A model generated the notes under the pieces. It saw only the letters and a list, made by a program, of their open reading frames with translations. It did not search any database and was not told the DNA's origin. Source: a virus (Duplodnaviria; Caudoviricetes). From it: a DNA stretch of 57,587 bases. The stretch spans positions 1 to 57,587 of IMG/VR virus record IMGVR_UViG_3300048853_000105. One strand, written 5' to 3'. Of the stretch, positions 5,229-56,316 are shown one piece after another. The translations under genes and the position numbers were made by a program. Position 1 is the stretch's first letter; every line of letters starts with the position of its first letter.

Positions 5229-5247
5229 TTAACCCGATTCATAAACC

Positions 5248-5307
5248 AGGCGGCCGCCAAAGTAAAAACCAAATCTTGTAAAAATGCAACGGCCGCCTTT
5301 ACTTTTT
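5248..5307 (+). terminator. Large-loop hairpin/terminator
   Basis: AGGCGGCCG / CGGCCGCCT, 33-nt loop, T-rich tail. Confidence 0.5.
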
Positions 5308-5322
5308 CCAATCCTTTAAACC

Positions 5323-6556: not shown

Positions 6557-7093
6557 ATGATGGAAAACTGGAAGGATGTTGTAGGATTTGAACGGTACCA
6601 GGTGAGCGATTTAGGACATGTTAGAGTTAAGGACATAATTGTGGGTGCCAGAGGAAATACCACCGCAAAGCGAAAAGCTAGAATACTTAGGCCTGGGCTA
6701 AACGGAGGTGGTTACCCGATGGTTAGGCTAACGCTTGTTCCATACGTAACCAAAATGAAGCTTGTTCATAGACTTGTTGCTCAAGCATTCATTCCGAATC
6801 CTGAAAACTTTGAGGCTGTAAACCACAAAGACTGCGACCGAGCGAATGCCGCGGCGGTAAATCTGGAATGGTGTACTGATAGCTATAATAACAAGTTTGC
6901 GTACGACGAAGGTTATAAGAATCCAAACTTCAAGAAAATTGAGCTACTAGATGATAGTGGATCACTTCGACATTGCTTCGAAAGCATAAAGGAAGCTTGT
7001 GAGTTTCTAGGTAAAACCCAGAGCGGATATGTGCAGCAAGCCATGCGTGATGGTTACAAATGCTACGGTTTCAAGTGGAGATACGCATTATGA
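6557..7093 (+). CDS. NUMOD4-HNH homing endonuclease
   Basis: ENWKDV..YQVSDLG; VHRLVAQAFIPN; VNHKD..N...NLEW. Confidence 0.9.
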   Translation: MMENWKDVVGFERYQVSDLGHVRVKDIIVGARGNTTAKRKARILRPGLNGGGYPMVRLTLVPYVTKMKLVHRLVAQAFIPNPENFEAVNHKDCDRANAAAVNLEWCTDSYNNKFAYDEGYKNPNFKKIELLDDSGSLRHCFESIKEACEFLGKTQSGYVQQAMRDGYKCYGFKWRYAL

Positions 7094-12880: not shown

Positions 12881-13486
12881 ATGGAAAATTGGAAAGACAT
12901 TGATAGCTATGAAGGTTATTACATGGTCAGTGACTTAGGTCGGATTAAATCTTTAGATAGACGGGTAGTATGTAATTCTGGCACCAAGCCAGTAAAAGGA
13001 CAAATTCTAAAGTATGCTTATGATAAGGATGGGTATAGAAAAGTGACACTTCAGAAAGAACGGAAAGCGCATCGTTTTCTTGTTCATAGGTTAGTGGCAA
13101 TCGCCTTCATTCCAAACCCTGAGAATAAGCCTCAAGTCAATCACAAAAATGGAATTAAGACGGATGTCTCGTTAGTAAATCTGGAATGGGCCACAGAATC
13201 GGAAAACACAAAGCACGCATTCGATAACGGCCTATGTACACAGAAAAAGGGGATTGATAATCGGAGATCAAAGCCTGTCATAATGTGCAGCCTAGATGGC
13301 AAGCCTATTCGTACGTTCGGATCAATAAGGGAAGCCGCCAGACAAACGAATGCGAAACAGTCTGCAATAACAGCATGCGTGGGTAAGAAAGCTCTTACTG
13401 CTGCCGGTTATTTATGGGTTTTAGAATCGGAAGATCAGACAGAAGAGACGCTGATTGATAGCGTGATGACTCTTTTTAGCAAGTAA
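12881..13486 (+). CDS. NUMOD4-HNH homing endonuclease
   Basis: ENWKDI..YMVSDLG; VHRLVA; VNHKNG..NLEW; FGSIREAAR. Confidence 0.9.
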   Translation: MENWKDIDSYEGYYMVSDLGRIKSLDRRVVCNSGTKPVKGQILKYAYDKDGYRKVTLQKERKAHRFLVHRLVAIAFIPNPENKPQVNHKNGIKTDVSLVNLEWATESENTKHAFDNGLCTQKKGIDNRRSKPVIMCSLDGKPIRTFGSIREAARQTNAKQSAITACVGKKALTAAGYLWVLESEDQTEETLIDSVMTLFSK

Positions 13487-13514: not shown

Positions 13515-14369
13515 ATGAATCGAAGAATTTTAAAGGTCCAGCGACCAATATTACGATACCATGGTGGTAAGTTCTTACTTGCCGATTGGATCATTAGTCA
13601 TTTTCCTGAGCACGAAGTATATACTGAAACGTTTGGGGGTGCAGGAAGCGTCCTCTTGAAAAAGAATAGGACTTATGCTGAAGTCTACAACGACCTTGAT
13701 GGCGAGGTTGTAAACCTCTTCAGAATTGTGAGAGATAGAGGAGATGAGTTACGCGAAAAAATAAGCTTGACTCCGTTTTCTAGGGATGAATTCGTCAAGA
13801 GTTTCCGGCTAGTCAAAAATCCACTGGAACGAGCTCGACGCACCGTGATCCGCTCATTCATGGGGTTTGGAAGTGGCATTTCATTCAAAAGCACTGGTTT
13901 CAGAGCAAACTCAAACAGATCCGGAACAATCCCCGCACGTGACTGGTGCAATTTGCCAGATGCTTATACTGCGATAATAGAAAGGCTTAAAGGGGTTATC
14001 GTTGAGAATCGAGATTGGCACCAGGTTGCTCTGCAACATGATAGTGCAAAGACTCTTCACTTCTTTGATCCGCCATATGTCTTGGACACAAGGTTTATGG
14101 GACAAAAAACAAGTATTTACAAGTATGAGATGAGCGATGGCCAGCATGAAGATTTCTGCAGCAAATTGATATCACTTAAAGGAATGTCAATTATATCCGC
14201 GTATGATAATGATATCTACAACGATCTCCTTCCTGATTTCAGGAAAGTTCATTGTAAGGCTTATGCAGATGGAGCAAAGGAACGAGTTGAAACGCTCTTT
14301 ATAAGCCCAAATACACCCAAAAAGCAGAGTTCAATTTTTGATCTGATCAGAGAGGATATCGCATCATGA
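13515..14369 (+). CDS. DNA adenine methyltransferase (D12/Dam class)
   Basis: YHGGK, FGGAGSV, NDLD, DPPY. Confidence 0.92.
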   Translation: MNRRILKVQRPILRYHGGKFLLADWIISHFPEHEVYTETFGGAGSVLLKKNRTYAEVYNDLDGEVVNLFRIVRDRGDELREKISLTPFSRDEFVKSFRLVKNPLERARRTVIRSFMGFGSGISFKSTGFRANSNRSGTIPARDWCNLPDAYTAIIERLKGVIVENRDWHQVALQHDSAKTLHFFDPPYVLDTRFMGQKTSIYKYEMSDGQHEDFCSKLISLKGMSIISAYDNDIYNDLLPDFRKVHCKAYADGAKERVETLFISPNTPKKQSSIFDLIREDIAS

Positions 14370-15850
14370 GAATAAATTCAAATCAGTTTAACATCAACTT
14401 CCATCAGGAAGTCGTTGTTTCAGATGATCTTACCTGTGGGGAATTCTTCGCTGGTGGTGGGGGTTGGACATCTGGACTTGAAAAAGTTGAGGGAGTAAAA
14501 ACCTTGTGGATACTTAACCACGACAAAGTAGCGCTGCGAACCAATGCTTTTCATCATAAAGATGTGAAGGTCTACTGGGCAGACATTTATGCTCAAGATG
14601 AGCACGAGCTTGAATATGTGGACTATGTTCATGCTTCAATTGAATGCACACAGCATAGCAACGCGAATGCTGGTAAAGACAAGAAACTAGGATCCTACAC
14701 AATGGGATGGGAACTTTACCGCTACCTGAAATTCCTGAATCCACTGGTGATCAGCATTGAAAATGTACCTGAGTTTAAGAAGTGGGCACCGATTGATGAA
14801 AGAACCGGAAAGCCAGACAAAAAGCGTAAAGGTGAAGAATTTGAACGCTGGAAAAAAGCAATAATGGATTTAGGATATGAATATAAAGAGTCCATCCGAA
14901 ATGCTGCAGATGATGGTTTGCCTACCCGTCGGGTTCGTTACTTCGCATTCTTCCACAAGCCTGGTATAGATATTTCCTTTCCAGAGTTCACGCATGCGAA
15001 GTTTGCTAGTGACGGAAAAAAGAAGTGGAAGGCATGTAGAAAGCACATAGACACGGATGATGAGGGTGTAAGCATATTTGGCAGGCAGTTCAATCCGAAA
15101 ATCAGGAAACATCAAAGAAAGCCGCTTTCCCCAAACTCGCTACGACGCATAGCCGGTGGCATTAAGAAGTACTATCCAGAAGGCTTTCAGTTTTTAGCCC
15201 ATTACTATGGTGAAGATTTCAAGAGATATCAAAGCCTTGATGCTCCTATAAACACCATTACTACTGAAAACCGACATCAGCTGATTACCATGGAGAAAGT
15301 GAAGTTCATTATGGATCATTGCCACACAGATAACTTCAACACGTTAGATGATCCTTTGAATCCGCAATTAACCAGACAGACCAAGCAATTGGTGCATGTA
15401 GACAACTTTATTTGCCAGTATTACGGAGGTAGTGACCAAGTTCAAACGCTTGATGCTCCAATTAACACAGTTCCATGCCGGGACACCCATCAGTTGATCA
15501 GAGTTGAAAAGCTGCAGTTTATCGCGAAGTACTTTAACTGCAATGGCAACCCTGAATATAGTGTGCAGAGTCTGGAAGATCCTCTATCTACCATACTCGG
15601 AGATAATAAACATCAGCTAATTACCTTGCTTGATGATCTGGATATCAAAGCAAGGTTCCTGCGGCCAGATGAACTTGCGGGATGCAGCACCTTCGAGAAA
15701 GGTTATTTCGCTCATCCGGAACTGAAGCTTTCTCATAAGAATGCAGTGAAGCTGATTGGAAATGCTGTTCCGCCAAAATGGGCGACGGTATTAGTATCCC
15801 CAAATGTCAGTGCCATGAAGCAGTATAAGTTGAGAATGGAAGTAGCTTAA
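14366..15850 (+). CDS. C5 cytosine DNA methyltransferase
   Basis: FAGGGG, ASIEC, ENV, RRVR, IGNAVP. Confidence 0.88.
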   Translation: MRINSNQFNINFHQEVVVSDDLTCGEFFAGGGGWTSGLEKVEGVKTLWILNHDKVALRTNAFHHKDVKVYWADIYAQDEHELEYVDYVHASIECTQHSNANAGKDKKLGSYTMGWELYRYLKFLNPLVISIENVPEFKKWAPIDERTGKPDKKRKGEEFERWKKAIMDLGYEYKESIRNAADDGLPTRRVRYFAFFHKPGIDISFPEFTHAKFASDGKKKWKACRKHIDTDDEGVSIFGRQFNPKIRKHQRKPLSPNSLRRIAGGIKKYYPEGFQFLAHYYGEDFKRYQSLDAPINTITTENRHQLITMEKVKFIMDHCHTDNFNTLDDPLNPQLTRQTKQLVHVDNFICQYYGGSDQVQTLDAPINTVPCRDTHQLIRVEKLQFIAKYFNCNGNPEYSVQSLEDPLSTILGDNKHQLITLLDDLDIKARFLRPDELAGCSTFEKGYFAHPELKLSHKNAVKLIGNAVPPKWATVLVSPNVSAMKQYKLRMEVA

Positions 15851-44400: not shown

Positions 44401-45326
44401 TGGAGAATGTGTATTTTCTAAATGGACAGAACATGAAAGATAAGTTCGGTATTATTCCAGGCCGGGCTCCAAGCAGTAATATCGCGCTTGCTGGTGCATG
44501 GGATATGCCTTCGCGTGTAGGTAAAACACACCACATCTGGCCCGACGATAACAGTCTTGAGCCTTACCTGCGTGCAGACGAGATCTTCTTCGGCGGTCGG
44601 GATGTGTCATTCCACTTCTTCATAAAAGCAAGTGACAGGCATACGGCCGTGCTAAAGTGCTATAAGATGTATGACTTCATCAATTCCTTTACAGGACCCG
44701 TGCCTTTTAGTTCACTTATCTACGGCTCCTTCAATGTGCTTGTTAATAACGAGATCAAGATTGACTACGTCAGCTCCGGGATGTGTAAGGGAGTACTGAC
44801 AATGCGAGAGCCGGTCGTAAATATGACCGGGTACATTCCACCAGCTGATACAAGCAGTCAATCTTCGATTGACAAGATCAGTCTTGCAAGCTTAGGATGG
44901 GAGGTAGTGTCAATGACAGATCAATATAGTAGACCAGCGGCAAAGTTGACAGGGGTGACTGCTTACGGTTATGAGAGTGCAAAGGTTGCGAAGGTCGGCT
45001 TCCGCACCATCAACCTGGAACTGGTTACCCAGGAGAATGGATATCAGTTCAATTTTCTTCCTAAGATCAAAACCTTGATGGCTTTGCTTGCGGCTCCAGA
45101 CGCACGCACACTTATTCACAATGGAATAACCCGAGAGGTATTTGCCAAGGATGGATTTAAAGTAACGATGCTTTATAAGAATGGTGAAAAGTTCACAGCA
45201 AAAGTGATGATCCCGCTAACTGAAATCAGGGTGTTGGAAACATGGAATTTACTTACTGATGGTAGCGGATTAATCCTTACTGATGGTACCGGAATACCGA
45301 TTACTGAGATTCTAAAACTAAACTAA
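44400..45326 (+). CDS. Distal tail protein
   Basis: Follows TMP. Confidence 0.7.
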   Translation: MENVYFLNGQNMKDKFGIIPGRAPSSNIALAGAWDMPSRVGKTHHIWPDDNSLEPYLRADEIFFGGRDVSFHFFIKASDRHTAVLKCYKMYDFINSFTGPVPFSSLIYGSFNVLVNNEIKIDYVSSGMCKGVLTMREPVVNMTGYIPPADTSSQSSIDKISLASLGWEVVSMTDQYSRPAAKLTGVTAYGYESAKVAKVGFRTINLELVTQENGYQFNFLPKIKTLMALLAAPDARTLIHNGITREVFAKDGFKVTMLYKNGEKFTAKVMIPLTEIRVLETWNLLTDGSGLILTDGTGIPITEILKLN

Positions 45327-47722
45327 TGGCAGACGAGATAGAAAATAAAGGAACGCAGGATGCATCAACTGACTTACAAAAAGTTGCTGGTGTTAGATCT
45401 GATCATAGGGTTATGATGATCGACCCTGTTACAAGAAGGTTTGTTTACGCAGAGCCCGATCAGCTACCTGTTGGTGAAGGAGGTGCTCCAGTTCAGGTCG
45501 CGCAAGCTTACACAAATGCGTTACTGACAAATTATAGAGTGTCTGAAGGTTATAGAATCGATGTATTAAATAAATATACAGGCAGGGGACAATATATTTA
45601 CGAGGCAATTAATAAGTTTGATGGTACACGGATAACTGAAGCTGATGTTGATAACCTTGATGTATTCCAGTTTGACGATGGGAAGTTTGGCTTGCTATTT
45701 TTGCCAAAAAACGCAGTTGATACTAGGGATTATGGAGCTAAGATAGATGGAAACACCGATGATTCTTTCGCAGTGCAAAGGGCTATTGATGCCACGTTAA
45801 AGAGAAAAGGTGGCGAGGTGTACTTTGCATCATCAACGAAGGGGTGTCTTATAGACAATCCGATATACGTAAATACAAATGAACAGGTTCCGATTAGCTT
45901 AGTTGGCGCCACCAATAATCAAAGAGATAGCGAGGACGGTTCAACAAATTATGGATCGACAATAGTAGTGAAAAGGCCCTTAACGGTATTTAACGTTAAC
46001 TTAAAGGCTGATGGAAGCTCTTTTATTGCCATAAATGATCAATATGTAGGTTTCTCAGCTAAAAACATCTCGTTCAGCGGAAAAAATTCAGTTAGAAATA
46101 TTATTGGATTTAAAATGTTTAGAACTCGCTCTAAAATGGAGAATATCACCGGCAATAGAGTAGATTATGTTATTGATCAACCTCCAACAGATGTTAATGG
46201 TGCATCTAATTATTGTGATATGTCTATTTATATCGCTCTTAGGTGTGTACAATCCCGTTATTCAGGATTTAGGTTTAGCTACAATGATTCAAGTGTTGTA
46301 GATGGAATCTATATGGAAAATCCAAATAGCACATGCAAATTCGCTATAGAAAGATTTGCATGTTCAGGAATGGTAATAAATGGATTATTACTAGGTATAA
46401 GCTTGAATCATGCAACTGTGCCTGGAGGAGCATTTGTTAGAGATCAGTCTTGTAATAGTTGCGTAACAAATGGCATTCACATTGAAAGCTCGAAGTTTGA
46501 GACGATGTTCGATTTGTTTTATTGTATTGCTCCCTCCATTAAAGGGCTACATACAAGATTCTTCCATAACAATGCTTTCAAATTTACTAATTGTAGAAAC
46601 CCGAAAATAGAACTTTGGGATGGATTTGCCAACCTCAATCCAGGGTACTTTGATATCCAAATCCTAGGAACTGAGACTGAGAATGCGAATATAATATTTG
46701 AGGGATGTGAGTTGACTAACTATCCAAGTAGAGCCGTTAGACAGCCCGTGGTTGGCACAAATGTAATGGGTGGACTCATAGCCAATCCATTTAAAACGCA
46801 ATTCATTGGTCCGATTGCAGCAGCCGGAGGTGAAGGATTTTACGAAAAAGCAGCACCTAAATTAACTGCGTCAGGGAATAACGACTGGTTGGCTTCGTAT
46901 ATATCTCTGCCTTATTTCAATGATGGTCTTTATTCTAACATCATTCATGCGGCCTTTTTAGCTAGGTTGTCACCTTTTGTTTACCGAGGTGCCTCAATGC
47001 CTTCAGGCAATGCATTTGAAATACGTAACGATGCTGGGGCACTTCTAGGGAGAATCTCAGGGGGCGCAAATGCTGTTCTGAATCGATATTTTGGAGCTAC
47101 CGGAAATACATGTTGGGACATGTCTACCGACGAAACGAAATATCTTCTTTCGGGTGTTTCTCGTATGAGGTTGTTAGCTAATGGCAGAATTGTACTTGGT
47201 TCAGCTACTGATGATACTGGATCGGCAATACAGCTTGGAGGATCTGTTTCCTTCATACCAGCTATTAAGGCGGTGAACCATGTTTTAGCGTCTTTGGATT
47301 ATGCGGTTTATTTTGATGCATATTTATCACCCTTAGTTGCTGATCTGCCATTTGCTTCTACTTGTAAAGGCAGGGTTTACGCGGTTAAGAAAGTTGATCC
47401 TAGTTCAAACCCGGTAACAATCCAATGCTTTGGCTCTGAGACAATCGACGGCGCGAATAAAATCCTCTTAAAGTCTGTAAATGCTTCGGTGTATATTCAA
47501 TCTGATGGAATCAGTTTCAAGGTTATTGGATCGCACAAGTTCAATGTATCCACTAAAGACGTGACTACAGTTGCGTACACCAGAACTACAATCAATGCCG
47601 CTTATCCAAATGCTAAGGAAGATGATGTTATAATTCAAGATGGCGCTGGTATGACTTATATCAAAAAAGATGACAGCCCAACCGGAAACTGGTCAGTTCG
47701 CACTTCAAACCAACTCTCTTAG
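45326..47722 (+). CDS. Tailspike with pectin-lyase-like beta-helix (putative depolymerase)
   Basis: RDYGAKIDGNTDDSFAVQRAID..GGEVYF. Confidence 0.8.
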   Translation: MADEIENKGTQDASTDLQKVAGVRSDHRVMMIDPVTRRFVYAEPDQLPVGEGGAPVQVAQAYTNALLTNYRVSEGYRIDVLNKYTGRGQYIYEAINKFDGTRITEADVDNLDVFQFDDGKFGLLFLPKNAVDTRDYGAKIDGNTDDSFAVQRAIDATLKRKGGEVYFASSTKGCLIDNPIYVNTNEQVPISLVGATNNQRDSEDGSTNYGSTIVVKRPLTVFNVNLKADGSSFIAINDQYVGFSAKNISFSGKNSVRNIIGFKMFRTRSKMENITGNRVDYVIDQPPTDVNGASNYCDMSIYIALRCVQSRYSGFRFSYNDSSVVDGIYMENPNSTCKFAIERFACSGMVINGLLLGISLNHATVPGGAFVRDQSCNSCVTNGIHIESSKFETMFDLFYCIAPSIKGLHTRFFHNNAFKFTNCRNPKIELWDGFANLNPGYFDIQILGTETENANIIFEGCELTNYPSRAVRQPVVGTNVMGGLIANPFKTQFIGPIAAAGGEGFYEKAAPKLTASGNNDWLASYISLPYFNDGLYSNIIHAAFLARLSPFVYRGASMPSGNAFEIRNDAGALLGRISGGANAVLNRYFGATGNTCWDMSTDETKYLLSGVSRMRLLANGRIVLGSATDDTGSAIQLGGSVSFIPAIKAVNHVLASLDYAVYFDAYLSPLVADLPFASTCKGRVYAVKKVDPSSNPVTIQCFGSETIDGANKILLKSVNASVYIQSDGISFKVIGSHKFNVSTKDVTTVAYTRTTINAAYPNAKEDDVIIQDGAGMTYIKKDDSPTGNWSVRTSNQLS

Positions 47723-50700
47723 ATGTACGCCACACTTCAAATCTATCGCAATGATCTGCCGCACCTGGCTGTCAACATAGACGAAAACACCTTCTTCTCA
47801 CAGGTAGTCATGGGTGAGCATATCATATCCAGCAGCTTCATTTCTTCAGAGCCGCTGGATATTGACGAAGGTGACTATGTGCTTTTTGGAGGTGAACGTT
47901 TTAACGTCAACAAAACACTTCCGCCACTTCGTAAATCAGCTAAGAATGGACTTGAATATACACTCAACTTACAAGGCTACATCTATGATCTTCACTACAC
48001 AGCTTACAGGCATTTAGGGTCTGCAGAGTTTGAATTATTCGCTACCGCCTACGTGTTCATTGGAACCATAGTAGAGTGTTTAAATAGGATATCCTCTGGC
48101 TGGTCCATTGGAGTTATTGATGCAACAGAACCTAAGCTGATTCAATTCTTCGAAAGTGGAAAAGGTTTCTCATGTAAAGGTGCTCTTATTAAAATAGCAG
48201 AAGCGTTCGGTCTAGAGTTTTGGCTTACTGGTAAGACACTCAATCTAACTGCGCAAGCCGGAGTTGATACGAACATCACATTTGAACAAGGTAGAGGACG
48301 CGGCCTTTATGAAATCTTTAGAGGTGAGATCAGTAATGAGCTATATTTTAATCGCCTGTATATCGAGGGGTCAACTCGAAATATCCCAGTGGGATATCGA
48401 GGGGGAATGAAACGGCTGCAGATTGACGTGCCACATTTGCAACTTGAAATACCTGCCGGTAAGAGGATTCGAGAATCGCCTACGGTTTTTGTTGATGATA
48501 TCTTTCCAAAGCGCGTAGGCACCATTACCGCAGTAAGCGTTGATCAGATAACCATTACCGATACAACCATTGACTTCGATCTTAATGGCCAGAGAATAGA
48601 AGGGCAGAAGTCAACAGTTGAAATGCTTACCGGTGAAAACTCGGGACGATCATTCGAGATTGATAAGTATGATCACGCTACTAAAAGCATAAAACTTGTA
48701 AAAATTACTGAAACAAACGGCGAAGTAAGACCAAATACAGTTTTCAAGATTAAAGCAGGTGACCAGTATTTCTTTGCCGGCATTAAATTGCCAGATACTT
48801 ATGTAGCAGCAGCCGAATCTGAACTTAAAGTACGAGGCATGGAGTTGCTACAAAAAGCAGCCCGGTACGTACCGCCATACACTGTACGTGTATCAGATAA
48901 GTTCATGCGCGACAATGGTCTTAAGATCAACGCTGGTGACCGCGTAAGGTTGAAAGATGCTGCGCTTGGGATTGATGTAAAAATCCGGGTGTCATCTGTT
49001 AAGTTTCCGCTTGTTGATCCGTACAGTGTCGAACTGTTGATTAGTGATGTGATTCCTTATTCTCCTGAAGAAAAAACCATCATTGAGATTGACAAAGTTA
49101 AAAAGGAGACCGTAGTTGTAAGAAAGCGGAGCACCGAGATGTCAAGGTTAAACTGGAAGGCTACAGCTGAACTTGCAACGTTGCTTGATACGCTCCGCGC
49201 TGAGATGCTGCTTATCATGGTCGAGGGTGGCCAATACAATACAGGAATAATAGCAGAGGTTGACAAGGATGGCTTTGCCACAACAGCTGGTGAGATAATC
49301 CATGATGAATATCTGGATAATGGCGGTAAATGGAACGCATCACCTTTCTCTGGGTTGATTCCTACGTCATCAGCGCACTACGTTTACTTTAAAGCCGATA
49401 GAAATACAATGGCTGCTGAGGTCGTGTTATCAGCTACTAAAATTGCAGTTAACGAGACTGCAGGCTTTTACTACTTTCCTTTTGGAGTTATATCCTCAAT
49501 AATAAACAACACTCGTGTTTTTACTTCAACTAAGGGCTACACGAGAATAACAGGCGGTAATATTACAACCGGACGTTTGATGTCTAATGATGGGCTTACT
49601 TGGCTGGACTTAGATACAGGGGAGATCAGAGGTAAGTTCACGTTTACAAGTGGAGCAGATGTAGAGGAAACGATCGAGAATGTCGCTGCTGAAAAAGTAA
49701 ATGAATTAGCAGATGGTTTGGGAGCTTTGGCATACAAGAATGCTGTTGAAAAAGCTCAATTAGGGTCTACTATTATCCAAGGGGGGTATATCCGGTCCGA
49801 GTTGATCGAAGTGATAAACCTTGTTGCACGTAACCTGATCACAGGTAAGTGGAGAATTACAGCCGCTGCAAATAACATCAGAATGGTTGACGAGGAGACG
49901 AACAAAATAATAATGCTCCTAGATGATGATAGCGCCTACGAAGGGTTTTACTTTTCATTGAGTCCTCCAATGAATAACCCGGATGGGTCACCTGACCCTA
50001 ATTACTTAGGTAATACTATACGAGTAGTAAATGGCGCTGATGTAATGTACTACAAGTACGCAAAAAGGGGGCCGGGTATGACTATTGGCACTCCTGGTAC
50101 TGCCACCACGTCTATTGGCCGGGCAGGTGTAACCTCCACAGACAACAGTGGTGTAATTCAGATGGAAACTAAGATTGATTTTGAGACTGGCCGGGGATCA
50201 GTTAATCATAATGTGTCTGATGGCCTGTTTTATACCGGCATTGAAAATAAAACATCGGGTCTAAGAGAAAGCGTACAATTTAAAATTGAGGTAATCAATG
50301 GCAAAAGATGCGTTGTAGCTGATGAAGTGCAAGTCAATCCGGAACGAATGTATAATCCGAATGTGGTTGCTGATGCAGGTGATAATGGTACCGACAATGG
50401 TGGTGTACTAAACCCTGTTGATCCGCCTGACGAAAATCCTCCAACCACTTCTAGTACCTTAAACGGCAATGGCTTTCCCTTCGGTGTAATGGTCAAAGGT
50501 GGTTTTCAAACTTATATCGCTGGATTTGAAGTTGCTAAGTTTCACGCCAGGTCACTGACCGAGGAAAATAACTGGAAAACAAAGAACAGATTATCTACCG
50601 ACGACAACGGGGATATGTACAATTCAATCGTATCGAATGCACTCTGGGCGAAAGCAAATGGCAAGAAAATAACCATACATACCGGTTGGTGGCCGGGGGA

Positions 50701-51490
50701 TGCTAACGAGCCATCTCGAATCAAAGCCTTTTATGCAGACCCGACAATACCCCTTGCCACTAAGGAGGCGGAATTCAAGTGGATGATACAAGCGCCTTTG
50801 CTGTTCATAAAGAATCGGCCTGATCTGGATGGCATTGTTGAAAATTACGATGTTTTTAATGAAGCTTTCAACGAGGGTCCGGTAATGAATTCGACTGGTC
50901 AGATTTGGAAACCAAGTGTAGTCACTGATGCGCTTGGGGTTGGATGCTATAAACGAGCAATCCAATACGCCAAAGAGGCTGATCCGCGTGTGAACATTCT
51001 GATAAACGATTATGGAATTGAGCATCGTTGGGTGAAACTTGATGCTTGGATAAATTTCGCTAATGAATGTAAATCTGAAGGCATTCCTTTAGACGGATTC
51101 GGATTTCAACTGCATGCGCAGGCAAGCGTAGGAATGTCGGGTATTGTAGAGAGCCTGCAAAGAATGGTTGCCATAGGAATGAAGATCAGATTTTCAGAGG
51201 TTGCATTGTCGATGCTGTACATGGAAGGTTCAGAAGAGAATTTTACGCCTGAAATGGAAGAAATTCAAGCCAACAAGTATGTGCAGCTTATTGACGTAAT
51301 AATGGATAATGTGCCTAAAACCCTATTCATAGAACTTGCTACGTGGGGAATTGTCGAAGACGATTACATGGGAAACCACATCAATGAACACGCTATGCTA
51401 TTTAACAATGATGGCACGCCTAAGCTGGCTTACCTACGAATGGTAGCCAGAATGAAGGAGCGTAACTCCTATAGTCAATTACCACTTTAA
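47723..51490 (+). CDS. Tail hub/tip protein with C-terminal GH10-like domain
   Basis: GRGLY..GSTRNIP..DDIFPKRVG; C-terminal DVFNE, INDY, DGFGFQLH, FSE, TWG. Confidence 0.8.
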   Translation: MYATLQIYRNDLPHLAVNIDENTFFSQVVMGEHIISSSFISSEPLDIDEGDYVLFGGERFNVNKTLPPLRKSAKNGLEYTLNLQGYIYDLHYTAYRHLGSAEFELFATAYVFIGTIVECLNRISSGWSIGVIDATEPKLIQFFESGKGFSCKGALIKIAEAFGLEFWLTGKTLNLTAQAGVDTNITFEQGRGRGLYEIFRGEISNELYFNRLYIEGSTRNIPVGYRGGMKRLQIDVPHLQLEIPAGKRIRESPTVFVDDIFPKRVGTITAVSVDQITITDTTIDFDLNGQRIEGQKSTVEMLTGENSGRSFEIDKYDHATKSIKLVKITETNGEVRPNTVFKIKAGDQYFFAGIKLPDTYVAAAESELKVRGMELLQKAARYVPPYTVRVSDKFMRDNGLKINAGDRVRLKDAALGIDVKIRVSSVKFPLVDPYSVELLISDVIPYSPEEKTIIEIDKVKKETVVVRKRSTEMSRLNWKATAELATLLDTLRAEMLLIMVEGGQYNTGIIAEVDKDGFATTAGEIIHDEYLDNGGKWNASPFSGLIPTSSAHYVYFKADRNTMAAEVVLSATKIAVNETAGFYYFPFGVISSIINNTRVFTSTKGYTRITGGNITTGRLMSNDGLTWLDLDTGEIRGKFTFTSGADVEETIENVAAEKVNELADGLGALAYKNAVEKAQLGSTIIQGGYIRSELIEVINLVARNLITGKWRITAAANNIRMVDEETNKIIMLLDDDSAYEGFYFSLSPPMNNPDGSPDPNYLGNTIRVVNGADVMYYKYAKRGPGMTIGTPGTATTSIGRAGVTSTDNSGVIQMETKIDFETGRGSVNHNVSDGLFYTGIENKTSGLRESVQFKIEVINGKRCVVADEVQVNPERMYNPNVVADAGDNGTDNGGVLNPVDPPDENPPTTSSTLNGNGFPFGVMVKGGFQTYIAGFEVAKFHARSLTEENNWKTKNRLSTDDNGDMYNSIVSNALWAKANGKKITIHTGWWPGDANEPSRIKAFYADPTIPLATKEAEFKWMIQAPLLFIKNRPDLDGIVENYDVFNEAFNEGPVMNSTGQIWKPSVVTDALGVGCYKRAIQYAKEADPRVNILINDYGIEHRWVKLDAWINFANECKSEGIPLDGFGFQLHAQASVGMSGIVESLQRMVAIGMKIRFSEVALSMLYMEGSEENFTPEMEEIQANKYVQLIDVIMDNVPKTLFIELATWGIVEDDYMGNHINEHAMLFNNDGTPKLAYLRMVARMKERNSYSQLPL

Positions 51491-51501
51491 ATAATACAAT
51501 T

Positions 51502-52863
51502 ATGAAAAATTTATGTAAATCCTTCCTGGCATTGATGCTGGTCTTAACCTTCAACCAGTGTACGCCTCCCGGAAATAGTTCCAGCAACCCGCCGACTGAT
51601 ACAATCGCACAGGTCAAACCTCCAGTTATTTTGCCCCCGGTCATCGTCGATCCTGCGCCAGATCAAAAACCTGAGCCTCCGATCGTGCTTCCGCCTGTAG
51701 TTGTGCCCGATCCACCAAAAGCAGAGCCTATGCCGGACCCGGAAGTTCAACAGCCCGACAAACCTGTCGAGGTCAAACCTGAACCTTCAAAGCCAGTAGA
51801 GGTAAAGCCGGATCCGGTAATTGAAGTTAAACCACAGCCTACACCTGTAGAGACTCCAAAACCAAATCCGGTAGTTGTTCCAACACCCAAGCCGGACCCC
51901 AAGCCAGAGCCACTACCTCCTGCAGCTAGAACATTAAGGGATTCTCCTATCACTTGGGGCGTAGCGTTTAAAGAATCAGACTTAACCAGGCAAAAGGTTA
52001 TTGATGAGACATACAAGCACTTTAGGTCTGTCACGGCTGAGAATGGGATGAAAGCAGGTAAGGTGCAGAAAAAAGAAGGGGTGTTTGACTTTACCCAAGG
52101 CAAAGCGCTGGTTAAGATCGCGAAAGCTAAAGGTTTACGGGTGCATGCTCATGCCTGCTTTGTATGGCCGTCACAAGAAAAGAACCTTCCTGCATTCTGG
52201 CATGAGGCTGCAAAGGATAAAAACAAATACATCGCCTTACTTAAGAACACCGTCCAGACATACGTCCGCACGTTTAAGGGTGATATTTCCGGTATTGACA
52301 TCATCAATGAGGCTCATGAAAATGATGGCAAGCTTCGACCATGTTATGCACTCACCCACATGGGGGAGACATATCCAGAGCAGATCGCAAAGTGGGTGAA
52401 GGAAGTTGATAAGGAGGTTAATATCTTCATTAGCGACTTTGATTATGAAAACCTGAGCCATAAAACTACTGTAGTCATTAAGTATGCCGGGGATCTTAAA
52501 AAGAAAGGCCTGGTAGATGGCCTTAGTTCTCAGATGCACACCGGCATCAAGATGGACTACAAGAACTACAAAAAGCGTCTTGATGAGATGGCTAAGCAGA
52601 ATTTACTTGTACATATTTCTGAGCTGGACTTAAGGGTTAAGTTTGATATACCAGAGGCTGACAGGGCCGAGAAGTTCAGGGAGATTGCAACCGGATTTCG
52701 CACGCTGCCAACAGGATTGCAATATGGCATTACGGTATGGTCACACATACATGAGGGCAATTTCCTCAACTACAAGCTTAGCCCAGCGCAATACGCTCCT
52801 GTAATCTTTAATAAGAATTATGAAGGAGGACTTGTTCTTGATGCTATCTTAAGTGTTAAGTAG
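51502..52863 (+). CDS. Exported (probable lipo)protein with Pro-rich stalk and GH10-like domain
   Basis: Signal peptide to Cys20; TAENGMK, VHAH, DIINE, DGLSSQMH, HISELD, ITVW. Confidence 0.85.
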   Translation: MKNLCKSFLALMLVLTFNQCTPPGNSSSNPPTDTIAQVKPPVILPPVIVDPAPDQKPEPPIVLPPVVVPDPPKAEPMPDPEVQQPDKPVEVKPEPSKPVEVKPDPVIEVKPQPTPVETPKPNPVVVPTPKPDPKPEPLPPAARTLRDSPITWGVAFKESDLTRQKVIDETYKHFRSVTAENGMKAGKVQKKEGVFDFTQGKALVKIAKAKGLRVHAHACFVWPSQEKNLPAFWHEAAKDKNKYIALLKNTVQTYVRTFKGDISGIDIINEAHENDGKLRPCYALTHMGETYPEQIAKWVKEVDKEVNIFISDFDYENLSHKTTVVIKYAGDLKKKGLVDGLSSQMHTGIKMDYKNYKKRLDEMAKQNLLVHISELDLRVKFDIPEADRAEKFREIATGFRTLPTGLQYGITVWSHIHEGNFLNYKLSPAQYAPVIFNKNYEGGLVLDAILSVK

Positions 52864-52909: not shown

Positions 52910-52994
52910 AATGCCTTATGATTTCCAACTCGTAAGGTTTTAGAAATCAGTGGCCTTCAGGTAGGCGGTAAATTTGTACATCAACAAGAGGTGT

Positions 52995-53621
52995 ATGAAT
53001 TTAACTAAACAACAGATAACTGATATTGCGAAATCCATTAAGGTCGGGTATGCTGCTTTTATGGCTTTTATCGAGGTTGAAAGTAACGGGGAAGGCTTTA
53101 AGAAAGACACCGGAAGAATCGTAATCCAGTTTGAACCTTCATACTTCAAAAAAACCTATACCCAGTGGAGAAAGGCGACAGCAAACACGGTATGGTTAAA
53201 CAACGGCGTAGGAAATCAAACAGTCGAATGGAAGGCATTTAACGATGCTTACAAGATAAGCCCGGATGCTGCGATGCAATCTTGCTCAATTGGCCTTGGT
53301 CAAATCATGGGATATCATTACAAGATGCTTGGCTTTAAAACGGTGGGTGATATGTGGGACTTTGCCAAGGGTTACGACTGCATCACTAAGACTTATGATA
53401 GTAACCGTGGAGAGTACAACCAGGTGATCTTAATTGCCCGGTTTATTGCTGCGAATGCAACACTCCTTAGAACGCTACAAAAGCCAAAGCTAACCATCGC
53501 TGATTTCGACATTATCGCAAAGAACTACAACGGAGCGTACTACAAGGAATTAGCACTTAAGATCGGACGTGAGCCGTACGATAAGACTATGTTAAGGGCC
53601 TACAATAAATACGCTGCATAA
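52995..53621 (+). CDS. Endolysin, N-acetylmuramidase (DUF3380-like)
   Basis: EVES, FEP, SIGLGQIMG, NYNG; TAAATTTG promoter element at 52969. Confidence 0.88.
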   Translation: MNLTKQQITDIAKSIKVGYAAFMAFIEVESNGEGFKKDTGRIVIQFEPSYFKKTYTQWRKATANTVWLNNGVGNQTVEWKAFNDAYKISPDAAMQSCSIGLGQIMGYHYKMLGFKTVGDMWDFAKGYDCITKTYDSNRGEYNQVILIARFIAANATLLRTLQKPKLTIADFDIIAKNYNGAYYKELALKIGREPYDKTMLRAYNKYAA

Positions 53622-53623
53622 GA

Positions 53624-53950
53624 ATGGAAGGTCTAAATCCAAAGGTGACTTTCGAGCAAATCCTTAAGTCACCACCAGTTTACATGCTCATGGTCGCCGT
53701 TGCACTGCTTTCCTTCTTTGTATATAAGTATGGTATGAGCACTGATCAGGTTAATGCAAACTGTGAGGCGGAAAAAACGGAGCTAAGGAAGGAGCTCAAG
53801 CAGGTGAGGGCAGACAATGCTGCTTTCGTCACCGCCATCATGGTTAAAAACGGAATTATTTTACAACAAGCACAAGATAAAAAGGAGCTAGATAGTGCTA
53901 TAGATAACAAGCTTAGGCCTAAAGCACGAGAAATTTTAAAAGAACAGTAA
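53624..53950 (+). CDS. Holin-like membrane protein
   Basis: Single TM plus coiled coil in lysis cassette. Confidence 0.5.
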   Translation: MEGLNPKVTFEQILKSPPVYMLMVAVALLSFFVYKYGMSTDQVNANCEAEKTELRKELKQVRADNAAFVTAIMVKNGIILQQAQDKKELDSAIDNKLRPKAREILKEQ

Positions 53951-53951
53951 T

Positions 53952-54752
53952 ATGAAAATCATCATCAAGGTTATACTTTCGCTCATCGTCCTGGCTATTG
54001 TCGGATACTTCTGCTACGACTATTATTTGAAAACAACAGAGCTTAACCGGGTCAACCAGGCGAACAGCAATGTAACCAAGAAAATTAAGGCTGAGGCTAA
54101 GGAAATCAAGCGAAAAGTTGATGAGAACGGCATTGAAACTGTCCTATTCAATGTGACTAACAACAAAGGCACTGTCTCTGAACTATTGGCGACCAAGGAC
54201 ACCAAAGATGTGATAGACACTACTGCTATGGCTTTAGATATCCGAACTAAGCAGTTAAAGCAGATACTGATTGTAAAGGCCACCTTGGAAACTGAGAACC
54301 TGAAACTTAAAAAGCAACTGGATGCGGCAAAACGTCCATTCTACACCTTTTCTGGTAACGGACTTGATCTTAAGTTTACCCCTCCAAACGATTTAGATAC
54401 TGCAGCTCGTGCTACCTTCAAGGCAAACGTCGGCATAATTGCCTCTCAGTACTGGAGACGTGACTGGTTCCTTGGTTCAAAAAAAAGCATCCTGGCTGTG
54501 AGATCACAGAATCCGGAAATATTCAAGGTGAACGGAGCGGACTTCATCGAGATAGAGCAAAAGCAACCTGCCTTTGGATTAAGAATACAGGCAAATGCTT
54601 CCTATAACATGGAAACCGGACAGTTAGGTTATGGCCCGGCAGCGAGATTCGATGTAGGTAGATTCAGCTTCCAAGGTAGGTATAGTAAGTTTCCTAATGA
54701 TCCGAAGTGGAAGCCCATGGTTAATGCAAGTTATGATTTATTGAGATTTTAG
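53952..54752 (+). CDS. Spanin-like lysis protein
   Basis: N-terminal TM, coiled coil, C-terminal beta strands ending in Phe. Confidence 0.5.
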   Translation: MKIIIKVILSLIVLAIVGYFCYDYYLKTTELNRVNQANSNVTKKIKAEAKEIKRKVDENGIETVLFNVTNNKGTVSELLATKDTKDVIDTTAMALDIRTKQLKQILIVKATLETENLKLKKQLDAAKRPFYTFSGNGLDLKFTPPNDLDTAARATFKANVGIIASQYWRRDWFLGSKKSILAVRSQNPEIFKVNGADFIEIEQKQPAFGLRIQANASYNMETGQLGYGPAARFDVGRFSFQGRYSKFPNDPKWKPMVNASYDLLRF

Positions 54753-54922: not shown

Positions 54923-55495
54923 TTACTTCCTAGACTTTCTTAATTTTTCTACCATTATTTTGTGCTTTAAATCTTGTTTTTGCTGAATCTCAAAAAGGCT
55001 CTTTTCTCGGCCTTCCCTTTCCTTCTTTTGTGAAAAGCTTTCTGGAGTTTGTCCATTTTGATAATAATTATTATTCACTATAACTTGCGGTTCGGATGGA
55101 GTAAGTATTTGCAATAAAGTTAATAGAAGGCTAATGAAAGCCATCAATCCGCCATATTGATCAAGTTTATTAGAGAAAATTTTAAAAAACTCCGACAACT
55201 TTGGATTTATATCAGTAGCAGCTGATGAAATCGAAGATATGGGTGTATTTACATTAACAGATTGCAAAACCGACTTTAAATCGCCTATTTCTGAAGCAGT
55301 AAGTTTAATATTTTCAAGATATTCTTTAATAACATTTCCTTTAGAATCAAAATCAAAAATACCATTTCTCATGTAATTCATTGTTCCGCAGTTTGGACAT
55401 TCGGAGCCGACGTTAGAAATAGTGTTTTTGGTACCCTGGGAAAACCGGAAGCCATTTTCGAAAGAATTCCCACACTTTTTGCATCTTAATTTCAT
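54923..55495 (-). CDS. Zn-ribbon plus TM moron protein
   Basis: CKKC...CPNC; hydrophobic helix. Confidence 0.6.
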   Translation of the reverse strand: MKLRCKKCGNSFENGFRFSQGTKNTISNVGSECPNCGTMNYMRNGIFDFDSKGNVIKEYLENIKLTASEIGDLKSVLQSVNVNTPISSISSAATDINPKLSEFFKIFSNKLDQYGGLMAFISLLLTLLQILTPSEPQVIVNNNYYQNGQTPESFSQKKEREGREKSLFEIQQKQDLKHKIMVEKLRKSRK

Positions 55496-55503
55496 AATAG
55501 GAT

Positions 55504-56316
55504 TTAATTTAATTCAATGTTGTTTGCCCATTCGAAATTAATATCGATATAAGGTTTGTAATCTCCCGCATGTTTGTCAGGAGTTGAACAATTAGCAAAT
55601 TTAAGATGCAAGCGGTTCCTTTCATCAAGCTCAAATGTCAAAAACAACTTATAAGTCCCATCTCGCCAATTACATACAATTTCGAACATTTCCGAATGGC
55701 CTCCCTCCCACATTGTAGTTAGATGCAAAAAATGATTAGATTTTGGTGTGAGTAAGATAAACTTATCCGATCTTTTACCTACAGAACTCGTAGAAAATTG
55801 AGTGATTTGGTAGTCAAAAGTATGTATAGGATATTTTTCACTTGGATTTATAATGTAGAATTGAAACACAGCACTTCGGGTGTTAGATTCTCTAATTTGC
55901 AAAATTACTTTAGGGACCAATCCTGCTCCGGTCACATGATTTAGAGTTTCGGCCTGCGTCGCCACCAACTTTGTATAACCCTCCAATAGTTTCCCTTGTG
56001 ATTCAATGACAATTCTTTGCTGTTCAAGCATGTTTTGAGAATTTGTTAAGTTCTCATCCGCTTTGCTTAAGCTTTTATCAGCCTTTGTTAGTAAAAGAGA
56101 CATACTCTCTAGAGAACTCCTAGTATTACATAGGGTTTGATTAGTTTTCTCAAGTAATTTCGCAGATTCGTCAGCTCTTCTTGCTTCATTCTCTGCTGCC
56201 TCCTTCGCATCATTTACTGCCTGCCTTGCAGAAGAAATTGCGCTAATAATTCCAAGAGCTGAAATTACTATTGTAATTATAGCTGTAACCCATATGGTAT
56301 TCATTTTCTTAGTCAT
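55504..56316 (-). CDS. TM plus coiled-coil moron protein
   Basis: N-terminal TM, heptads, beta-rich C-terminus. Confidence 0.6.
   Translation of the reverse strand: MTKKMNTIWVTAIITIVISALGIISAISSARQAVNDAKEAAENEARRADESAKLLEKTNQTLCNTRSSLESMSLLLTKADKSLSKADENLTNSQNMLEQQRIVIESQGKLLEGYTKLVATQAETLNHVTGAGLVPKVILQIRESNTRSAVFQFYIINPSEKYPIHTFDYQITQFSTSSVGKRSDKFILLTPKSNHFLHLTTMWEGGHSEMFEIVCNWRDGTYKLFLTFELDERNRLHLKFANCSTPDKHAGDYKPYIDINFEWANNIELN

Follow-up and report, generated by a model that had tools for sequence, protein, structure and literature searches.

The DNA analysed here, called the window throughout, is a stretch of 57,587 nucleotides from a virus of the Caudoviricetes (Duplodnaviria) and covers positions 1 to 57,587 of the IMG/VR record IMGVR_UViG_3300048853_000105, a 57,587-bp provirus with an estimated completeness of 95%. 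Its layout is that of an ordinary temperate siphovirus. Two adjacent genes close to the end of the tail region are the subject of this work. One encodes a Tal-like tail-tip ("hub") protein of 1255 amino acids (aa) and the other a 453-aa protein with a Pro-rich stalk, and each carries a C-terminal domain of glycoside hydrolase family 10 (GH10). Downstream of the tape measure gene lie, in order, a 308-aa gene without a family, a 798-aa beta-helix gene, the hub gene and the stalk gene, and the stalk gene is followed by a hairpin, an N-acetylmuramidase endolysin gene and two genes for membrane/coiled-coil proteins. Both open reading frames (ORFs) of the pair were present, and their coordinates are collected with those of the other features in Table 1.

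Two GH10 domains, on a probable tail-tip protein and on a stalked protein

The C-terminal part of the hub protein (aa 915-1241) matched PF00331 (Glyco_hydro_10) with an E value of 1.3e-35 and 123.5 bits (cut-off 22.1) over profile positions 8-309 of 311. A sequence-only reading of this DNA had described a domain with the motifs DVFNE and FSE behind a linker rich in Pro, Asp and Asn (aa 878-911); the motifs were found at aa 1043-1047 and 1157-1159, and the architecture was as described. Asn1046-Glu1047 and Glu1159 align with the NE and E of solved xylanases. When the domain was compared with the PDB, 129 distinct GH10-type sequences were matched at E ≤1e-3, the best in phmmer being 4w8l (1.7e-21). 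A predicted structure was obtained with AlphaFold2, with a predicted local distance difference test (pLDDT) score of 84.8 and a predicted template modelling (pTM) score of 0.82; the top PDB matches of this model in Foldseek were all GH10, including 1w32 (1.3e-21, template modelling (TM) score 0.79). The nucleophile region reads F-S-E-V-A, with Ala1161 at the position of the usual GH10 Asp. The GH10 nucleophile signature, a PROSITE-type pattern, contains [ST]-E-[LIY]-[DN]; the tail domain fails this signature at Ala1161, and its Pfam-level membership is unaffected.

The hub N-terminus was searched separately. Its first 480-660 residues matched large PHROG families without a function, such as phrog_19846. 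The match to PF06605 (Prophage_tail) stayed below the cut-off of 31.3 bits, both in the window (9.6e-5, 22.6 bits) and in a related locus, L003 (31.0 bits). Among deposited phages, a protein search detected homologues in 66 records, and 53 of these carry the name of a Bacteroidota host; by first name word the records were Bacteroides (26), Riemerella (14), Porphyromonas (12), Elizabethkingia (1), "Bacteriophage" (10) and three others, and the matched features were annotated as tail protein, tail fiber, receptor binding or tail spike. In a protein atlas, the neighbours of the hub were viral Prophage_tail/Tal (PF06605) clusters with scores of 0.93-0.98. A PDB sequence search with the hub N-terminus and with the 308-aa gene gave no credible match. 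The product of 47723-51490 is thus well supported by its context as a Tal-like tail-tip protein. The term "tail hub", used by the sequence-only reading, is kept here because gene order, the sub-threshold PF06605 match and the homologues annotated as tail proteins favor it; it is inferred rather than proven, as PF06605 stays below its cut-off and no solved structure was matched. The beta-helix protein that had been noticed at 45326 was recovered as a match to PF12708 and constitutes the pre-hub spike gene.

In the stalked protein, aa 150-449 matched PF00331 with an E value of 1.3e-44 and 153.2 bits (profile positions 11-308 of 311). The signal-like start, the Pro-rich stalk (128 aa, 42 of them Pro) and the second, divergent domain with DIINE (aa 266-270) and HISELD (aa 371-376) were all present as previously noted, and the two motifs align with the acid/base NE and the nucleophile E of solved xylanases. 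The earlier assignment of the motifs in both domains to the acid/base and nucleophile Glu of GH10 therefore agrees with the Pfam matches and with the alignments to solved xylanases. The stalk domain matched 138 distinct GH10 sequences in the PDB (phmmer, 6fhe 2.6e-26 and 3niy 6.4e-26). In its AlphaFold2 model the pLDDT of the domain was mostly above 90 and the stalk was disordered, and Foldseek matched it to 3niy (9.5e-22, TM 0.84). For both models, which were made from small alignments, the top Foldseek PDB matches were GH10 xylanases with target-normalised TM scores of 0.79-0.88, so the check by structure prediction that had been proposed for a TIM-barrel fold came out in its favor. Asn269-Glu270, Gln344, His346, Glu374 and Asp376 were invariant in 17 of 17 members of the stalk family. 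A six-frame GH10 search of the record hit two places only, 50465-51445 and 51949-52848, and the two domains share 24% identity over 261 aa. Pfam recognised no carbohydrate-binding module in either the tail or the stalked protein, PHROGs gave no family for the stalked protein, and PADLOC and NCBIfam gave nothing besides GH10.

The N-terminal sequence of the stalked protein is MKNLCKSFLALMLVLTFNQC. It was signal-like in two of the six loci compared (the window and L003) and in 7 of 17 aligned family members; two members were truncated or unclear. The signal-type members have an uncharged hydrophobic core of 11-12 residues followed by Gln-Cys at positions 19-20, with Gln at -1 in all seven. The lipobox at the end of a signal peptide has the consensus [LVI]-[ASTVI]-[GAS]-Cys. 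Passages of PMC5837995 give Leu-Ser-Ala-Cys as a canonical lipobox and describe a "Q-rule" for Bacteroidetes, by which signal peptidase I cleavage usually exposes Gln, and lipoproteins carry Cys after the cleavage site. Gln19-Cys20 of the window, with Gln at -1, is a non-canonical lipobox and fits equally well a signal peptidase I cut before Gln. Judged by its N-terminus, the window's stalked protein is likely exported. The suggestion of a cell-displayed copy can thus hold at most for the signal-like subgroup of the window (7 of 17 members); it does not extend to the whole family because the signal-like N-terminus occurs in only two of six loci, and the lipobox is non-canonical.

To compare active-site residues, 168 GH10 domains were aligned with hmmalign (19 tail, 22 stalk and 127 others, with some duplicate rows). 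No variation was seen in 19/19 tail and 22/22 stalk rows at the nucleophile Glu, at the Asn-Glu of the acid/base or at the GxQxH Gln and His, and the first active-site Trp was present in 19/19 tail and 21/22 stalk rows (the last row is gapped). Second-shell positions differed. The Trp eight residues after the first active-site Trp was found in 115/127 other domains, in 3/19 tail rows and in 0/21 stalk rows (Phe in 18, Tyr in 3); at this place in the window, the stalk copy has Phe and the tail copy Tyr-Met. All 22 stalk rows have Ser instead of the NDY-motif Asn, which 125/127 others and 19/19 tail rows retain. The Asp two residues after the nucleophile was kept in 124/127 others and 22/22 stalk rows; among tail rows it was Ala or Gly in 12/12 of the window's clade and Asp in the other seven. 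From work on Cex and Cellvibrio Xyn10A, the -1 subsite is known to be lined by the second-Trp region, which helps to keep out sugars with a C6, and the nucleophile-contacting His to be supported by the Asp two residues after the nucleophile. These replacements hint at altered specificity or kinetics, and the substrate may not be plain xylan since the second Trp is mostly lost in the phage copies. By sequence and by model, both domains are GH10 TIM barrels with an intact catalytic pair, for which xylanase activity is predicted only.

Table 1. Features of the tail-tip and lysis region of the window, with the general map in the last rows
Feature	Position	Strand	Details
Tal-like tail-tip ("hub") protein, 1255 aa, C-terminal GH10	47723..51490	+	phrog_19846 1.1e-120
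Tal-like N-terminal body, aa 1-480	47723..49162	+	55-89% identity among six loci
Linker rich in Pro/Asp/Asn/Gly, aa 878-911	50354..50455	+	model pLDDT <50
Tail-borne GH10 (beta/alpha)8 domain	50465..51445	+	Pfam 1.3e-35, six-frame match
Tail GH10 acid/base Glu1047	50861-50863	+	
Tail GH10 nucleophile Glu1159	51197-51199	+	
Stalked GH10 protein, 453 aa	51502..52863	+	
Signal-like N-terminus, aa 1-20	51502..51561	+	core SFLALMLVLTF, then Gln19-Cys20; model helix aa 2-17
Pro-rich stalk, aa 21-148	51562..51945	+	42 Pro in 128 residues (33%), Glu/Lys/Val-Pro repeats; pLDDT mostly <55
Second GH10 domain	51949..52848	+	Pfam 1.3e-44
Stalk GH10 acid/base Glu270	52309-52311	+	
Stalk GH10 nucleophile Glu374	52621-52623	+	
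Pre-hub spike protein, 798 aa: ~50-aa N-terminal adaptor and pectate-lyase-like beta-helix body	45326..47722	+	PF12708 5.4e-7, 30.1 bits, cut-off 27
Terminator-like hairpin and T run, 9-nt loop	52878..52909	+	-12.5 kcal/mol, z -3.49, 1/200 shuffles as stable
TAAATTTG, TAnnTTTG match	52969..52976	+	18 nt before in-frame endolysin ATG 52995
Endolysin (N-acetylmuramidase), first gene of lysis module	52974..53621	+	PF11860 3.2e-29, phrog_1224 9.2e-39
Endolysin slot in relatives	L003 11452-12084; L004 11323-11892; L005 11238-11870; L006 12999-13610		
Repressor-type regulators, then replication and methylase genes, terminase, portal, major head protein	regulators at left end		
Tape measure, 1323 aa, then tail-end genes, lysis module, integrase	integrase at right end		phrog_9959 7.4e-162

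Conservation of the pair and its two evolutionary regimes

A search with the stalked protein returned 16 close relatives with 52-77% identity, and DNA was recovered for four IMG/VR loci and one new metagenome locus (L003, L004, L005, L006 and L008; L007 is the same DNA as L003). The survey of co-occurrence that had been suggested showed a tail-borne GH10 beside the stalked GH10 in five of five of these loci, that is, in 6/6 when the window is included. The Tal-like protein ends in the tail GH10 in L003, L006 and L008, as in the window; L004 and L005 carry this domain one gene earlier, in the pre-hub gene between the 308-aa gene and the Tal-like protein. An N-terminal adaptor of about 50 residues is common to the pre-hub gene of every locus. 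Behind it, the window, L003 and L006 have a beta-helix body, and L004 and L005 a GH10 domain flanked by about 230 aa and about 190 aa. The adaptor is shared and the body is swapped; therefore GH10 fills a slot that is otherwise held by a classical depolymerase fold. Also in line with a conserved pair, P0004 and P0010 lie on contigs of equal size (22,410 bp). Length-matched searches also showed GH10 at the C-terminus of four more long proteins (P0002-P0005), and P0003 has a different N-terminal body. A scan of viral contigs with the hub N-terminal alignment returned just the four contigs already known, and a scan with the tail GH10 domain alone, with narrow patterns, returned nothing. With all five loci alike in this, we regard the pairing of tail and stalked GH10 as not accidental.

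Two further observations concern the pre-hub gene. In L003 it is split (4257-6241): a 63-aa ORF corresponds to the adaptor and a 596-aa ORF beginning 3 nt later to a beta-helix-like body, which could reflect a genuine arrangement in two genes, a frameshift or an error of assembly. In L004 (3731-6223) and L005 (1959-4424), the domain of about 190 aa after the GH10 barrel has no Pfam match and is 40-odd % identical between the two; it could be a carbohydrate-binding or trimerisation module.

The two GH10 domains differ in how they evolve. Across the six loci, the median pairwise identity was 62% (range 55-89) for the hub N-terminus, 57% (52-83) for the 308-aa gene and 60% (51-79) for the stalk GH10 domain, compared with 24% (22-38) for the tail GH10 domain. 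The tail GH10 domains of different loci (24%) are no closer to one another than each is to the stalk copy of its own locus (24-28%). Breakpoints were located by sliding comparisons of 60 aa. The hubs of L003 and L008 are 92-100% identical over most windows of this size to about aa 660 (range 73-100%), and then fall to 20-52% in GH10. The reverse was seen between the window and P0002, whose N-termini share 12-45% and whose GH10 domains share 50-72% identity. Because of these breakpoints, the tail GH10 reads as an exchangeable cassette, like receptor-binding modules, and the stalked GH10, from its identities, as a vertically inherited core gene.

A quick maximum-likelihood tree was built from 18 tail rows, 22 stalk rows and 50 of the 128 other domains, giving 90 rows in all. 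A filter on coverage had first removed 24 of the 192 domain hits, those with fewer than 250 profile positions; the 50 others are the domains of P0023-P0033 that passed it and every third of the rest. The stalk rows formed one group with support of 100. One split (support 96) placed all stalk rows, 17 tail rows and three others on one side, and 47 others together with P0095 on the other side; one of the three, P0180, is a 1119-aa protein and sister to the L008 hub. This topology is compatible with a single early acquisition by the phage lineage, in which the domain was later duplicated.

Transcription context, lysis genes and host

The gap between hub and stalk gene is 11 nt in the window, 10 nt in L003 and 22 nt in L004. 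Downstream of the stalk gene, a terminator-like hairpin was found in four of the five loci checked; the window shares its hairpin with L003 and L005, and L004 has another. TAnnTTTG is the -7 promoter motif of Bacteroidota. None of the six loci has it in the 200 nt that precede the stalk gene (0/6); on the + strand of the whole window it occurs 18 times, and one match, TAAATTTG, lies between the hairpin and the endolysin ATG. A sigma-70 promoter scan gave 35 sites versus 30.9 +/- 5.3 in shuffled sequence, indicating no enrichment, and this model is not applicable to Bacteroidota. From this arrangement, we take the stalk gene to close the tail transcription unit, to lie outside the lysis module and, in the window's phage, not to be a self-standing moron. 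The 11-nt gap to the tail gene and the terminator-like hairpin after the stalk gene suggest that it is expressed late rather than as lysogenic conversion. Lysogenic-conversion cargo, one of the roles that the sequence-only reading had offered, is accordingly disfavored because of the short gap, the lack of an upstream TAnnTTTG and the hairpin after the gene. A role for the stalk GH10 as a lysis gene was rejected on account of the terminator and the promoter motif in between, and of an endolysin type that varies while the GH10 stays.

The endolysin ORF was called from TTG 52974. Since the promoter-like motif TAAATTTG overlaps this TTG codon, ATG 52995 is more likely the true start. The endolysin slot is occupied by a PF11860 muramidase in the window and L008, by GH108 in L003 and L005 and by GH19 in L004 and L006, with constant flanking genes. 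Behind it, 53624-53950 encodes a 108-aa protein with one hydrophobic segment and a coiled-coil-like tail, and 53952-54752 a 266-aa protein that has a membrane segment at its N-terminus, a coiled coil and a C-terminus rich in beta structure; its final residues, ...YDLLRF, resemble an outer-membrane insertion signal. Neither gave a family in Pfam, PHROGs, NCBIfam or PADLOC. Both genes are kept behind different endolysin types in L003-L005 (61-94% and 64-77% identity, respectively), and they are candidates for the holin or spanin equivalents of Bacteroidota phages.

Four named relatives of the integrase were found at 58-70% identity, and all are from Pedobacter (P. metabolipauper 70%, P. zeae 68%, P. 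agri 65% and Pedobacter sp. SYP-B3415 58%); the farther named matches, at 34-39%, are Sphingobacteriaceae. The source DNA is labelled as a soil metagenome in the sequencing-run listing, which has two DNA entries and no RNA entry for it; in the protein index, the provirus belongs to a 191-kb contig. When species genomes were scanned with the hub N-terminus and the stalk-family alignment, no relative was confirmed. The host is probably a soil member of the Sphingobacteriaceae (Pedobacter-like), and it is named here to family or genus level only, the species-genome scans having been empty. The occurrence of the hub family in Bacteroidota phages is consistent with this host.

Other genes of the window were also recorded. 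Two paralogous HNH endonuclease genes (6557-7093 and 12881-13486) lie on either side of the primase/helicase region, which is followed by two DNA methyltransferase genes (13515-15850). Between the lysis module and the integrase, two genes (54923-55495 and 55504-56316) lie on the - strand, opposite to the late genes. The product of one combines a hydrophobic segment with Cys-rich motifs resembling a zinc ribbon, and that of the other has an N-terminal membrane segment and a coiled coil. They gave no credible family match (a weak one to LeoBC, 6.8e-4) and are candidates for expression from the prophage, as judged by their position.

Possible function of the pair and its relation to known systems

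The two domains were compared with known enzymes and phage proteins. The solved GH10 xylanases, namely Cellvibrio japonicus Xyn10A (1w32/1clx), Thermotoga Xyn10B (3niy/1vbr), Cellulomonas fimi Cex (2exo) and Paenibacillus Xyn10C (4w8l), share with them the Pfam family, the (beta/alpha)8 fold, both Glu, the Asn, Gln and His, and the first Trp, at 20-25% identity. Unlike these enzymes, the window domains are fused to a phage tail tip or to a Pro-rich stalk in a prophage; moreover, the second Trp is replaced in both, the NDY Asn is Ser in the stalk copy, and the tail clade has Ala/Gly after the nucleophile. In siphovirus Tal proteins, such as those of lactococcal TP901-1 and Tuc2009, the C-terminal extensions are peptidoglycan hydrolases. 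The hub resembles them in joining a conserved N-terminal tail-tip body, here of a sub-threshold PF06605 type, to a variable C-terminal enzyme, whereas its extension is a GH10 glycanase and the host a Gram-negative member of the Bacteroidota. The Llp lipoprotein of phage T5 blocks a protein receptor in a non-enzymatic way; an exported stalked GH10 would be similar in role only, by stopping the loss of progeny or superinfecting phage on the infected cell and on debris.

Passages of the review PMC5380687 describe phage depolymerases that are bound to the virion and also occur as soluble enzymes, set free when the cell lyses. The pair is alike in combining a tail enzyme with a free form and in swapping modules behind conserved N-terminal adaptors. 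However, the usual depolymerase body is a trimeric beta-helix, whereas a monomer-type TIM barrel on a flexible linker is found here. The free form in known systems is a product of the same gene, whereas here it is a separate and anciently diverged paralogue with 24-28% identity to its tail partner. In those passages of PMC5380687, "xylanases" appear only as a predicted class in Caulobacter phage Cr30. The best structural matches to the tail model in BFVD were GH5 barrels of clan GH-A (E 5.2e-9 to 2e-4), which occur in long proteins of Pseudomonas phage POR1, Erwinia phage phiEaP8 and Klebsiella phage SopranoGao; they belong to a different family from the window GH10, with 10-16% identity, and no GH10 model was among the 26 BFVD matches at E ≤0.001.

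Searches for precedents were also carried out. A protein search of 50,697 deposited phage records, a collection not checked for the presence of Cr30, showed no GH10 in any named phage, and four weak matches in records named "Bacteriophage sp.". Three of these, all human faecal and labelled "UNVERIFIED: Bacteriophage sp." (L010, MT839786.1; L011, MT837910.1; L012, MT835631.1), were rejected as phage. Their GH10 lies near GH43, GH67, a major facilitator superfamily (MFS) sugar transporter and pullulanase pieces, and they further carry a tRNA synthetase, a sigma factor and a histidine kinase, so they look like bacterial xylan-utilisation DNA; this reading covers these three of the four records, the fourth being MT838685. 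Among 1.84 billion representative proteins, eight matched the tail domain at E ≤1e-30 and 2323 at E ≤1e-3. GH10 genes are found on soil viral contigs and are treated as host metabolism in passages of PMC6460857, and GH10 is listed as an auxiliary gene in part of a mangrove virome paper. The pair differs from the auxiliary xylanases of those PMC6460857 passages in that one copy is fused to the tail and the other closes the tail operon, which points to a function in infection. Such a role is argued for viral carbohydrate-active enzymes (CAZymes) in general in the title and abstract of a preprint (bioRxiv 10.1101/2024.12.20.629349), with passages on GH19, not GH10. Literature searches on what Pedobacter exopolysaccharide consists of, on the subsite Trp of GH10 in relation to cellulase activity and on phage depolymerases with a GH5 TIM barrel gave nothing of use, and one for GH10 or xylanase with phage tail or tailspike returned no report of a tail-fused GH10. 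The arrangement of a virion-bound and a free depolymerase is therefore known; the GH10 family, the conserved pairing and the two evolutionary regimes are new.

We propose, with a probability of roughly 0.55, that the phage makes a late GH10 glycanase pair, consisting of a tail module that binds the receptor and cuts a glycan and a free stalked enzyme that clears the same glycan class. Family, fold, catalytic residues, architecture, pair conservation, cassette shuffling and gene arrangement were computed, and the activity, virion location, expression timing, export route, substrate and release role are inferred. In such a scheme, the temperate siphovirus-like prophage would make two retaining GH10 endo-beta-1,4-glycanases late in infection. 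The tail GH10 would hang by its flexible linker from the tail tip, alongside the beta-helix spike, presumably in three copies per virion if the hub is trimeric like other Tal proteins. It would bind and cut a beta-1,4-xylan-like glycan to reach the cell surface, and so set the range of reachable hosts. The stalked GH10 would act as a free enzyme, exported through its N-terminal signal in the window's phage and, in most relatives, where this N-terminus is an amphipathic helix, released at lysis. By stripping the same glycan class from the infected cell, debris and neighbours, it would leave progeny untrapped and free to spread.

The substrate in this proposal would have a beta-1,4-xylan-like backbone. 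A host-made surface or matrix glycan is somewhat more likely than plant xylan, since the shuffling of the tail cassette favors a host-made, strain-variable polymer. Plant xylan stays a live rival because of the constancy of the GH10 family and of the stalk enzyme and because of the known GH10 substrates.

Several observations weigh against the late glycanase pair. The gap between hub and stalk gene widens to 341 nt in L005, where a small ORF and a hairpin lie in between, and to 242 nt in L006; the L005 stalk gene, preceded by this hairpin, looks like an independent unit. The operon reading was drawn from short-motif scans, among them the one for the TAnnTTTG consensus. In four of six loci (L004, L005, L006 and L008) and in 8 of 17 family members, the stalked protein begins with a charged amphipathic helix without Cys, and because of this heterogeneity, signal-like versus amphipathic, no single localisation can hold across the stalk family. 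The pair count of 6/6 was ascertained via the stalk gene, with narrow pattern scans, and the tree came from a short search, with long branches and an unknown root. The Ala/Gly in place of Asp after the nucleophile, seen in the tail clade of the window, may indicate that catalysis is slow or altered. No bacterial surface glycan is known to be a GH10 substrate. Moreover, passages of PMC6408826 describe characterised GH10 enzymes as overwhelmingly plant-xylan hydrolases.

In a first alternative, both proteins are true plant-xylan xylanases. The tail copy would bind and cut xylan in litter or xylan held by the host's xylan-utilisation proteins, and the stalked copy would be an auxiliary metabolic or lysogenic-conversion xylanase on the cell surface. 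GH10 is almost wholly a xylanase family in the passages of PMC6408826, and GH10 xylanase is listed as a viral auxiliary gene in soil viromes in those of PMC6460857. The glycone-side residues are kept (ENxxK, the third-strand His and Trp, NE, QxH, E and the first Trp). The pair stays GH10 while the core genes are only 55-62% identical and the spike changes fold, which fits an invariant substrate class, and the window's stalked protein is laid out like a Bacteroidota surface glycanase, with signal, Cys, flexible linker and catalytic domain. However, the tail GH10 diverges and recombines like host-range modules, for which a uniform plant polymer gives no reason. The second Trp, present in 115/127 other GH10 domains, is found in 0/21 stalk and 3/19 tail rows. 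In addition, no promoter motif precedes the stalk gene, which follows the tail gene after 11 nt, the export signal is missing in four of six loci, and Pfam shows no carbohydrate-binding module in either protein. We consider this alternative unlikely, though still worth keeping in view. A combined scheme, to which we give a little less credence, is that the first receptor of the phage is the food polymer of its host: the tail GH10 would bind and cut plant xylan around a xylan-degrading Sphingobacteriaceae cell, the clade without the Asp could dwell there as a long-lived glycosyl-enzyme intermediate, and the stalked GH10 would free progeny from the same matrix.

Another possibility is that the stalked GH10 is itself a side fibre of the virion, attached to the tail tip by its short N-terminal helix, with the enzyme kept at a distance from the tail by the Pro-rich stalk. 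The position of the gene directly after the tail-tip gene, inside the tail transcription unit, is consistent with this, as are the charged amphipathic, non-Sec N-terminal helix in four of six loci (8 of 17 members) and a divergence at the rate of the core tail genes. However, the window and six other members have a hydrophobic core and Gln-Cys, and would be sent out of the cytoplasm, the site of virion assembly. The stalked protein showed neither a recognisable domain for oligomerisation or docking nor a PHROGs family, and we regard a side fibre as quite improbable.

In Cex, an Asp-His-Glu network has a role in deglycosylation. It is very doubtful that the tail GH10, or both domains, are glycan-binding modules with little or no turnover, that is, lectin-like receptor-binding domains on an enzyme scaffold: the Asp partner of the nucleophile-His pair is lost in 12/12 rows of the window's tail clade, the second active-site Trp is lost as well, and the Foldseek list includes 2his, a Cex E127A/H205N mutant with covalent cellobiose, but both Glu, the Asn, and the Gln and His of GxQxH are invariant in all tail and stalk rows despite 22-38% identity, and therefore indicate selection on chemistry and not on binding alone.

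GH10, the textbook plant-xylan family, is here a fixed and paired feature of a soil Bacteroidota prophage lineage. If the substrate is a host glycan, this would mean xylan-like surface polymers in Sphingobacteriaceae and a new GH10 specificity; if it is plant xylan, phage adsorption would be tied to the food of the host. The natural series of GH10 domains with altered second-shell active-site residues is useful for enzymology. Either way, the "xylanase" auxiliary genes of soil viromes may be infection enzymes.

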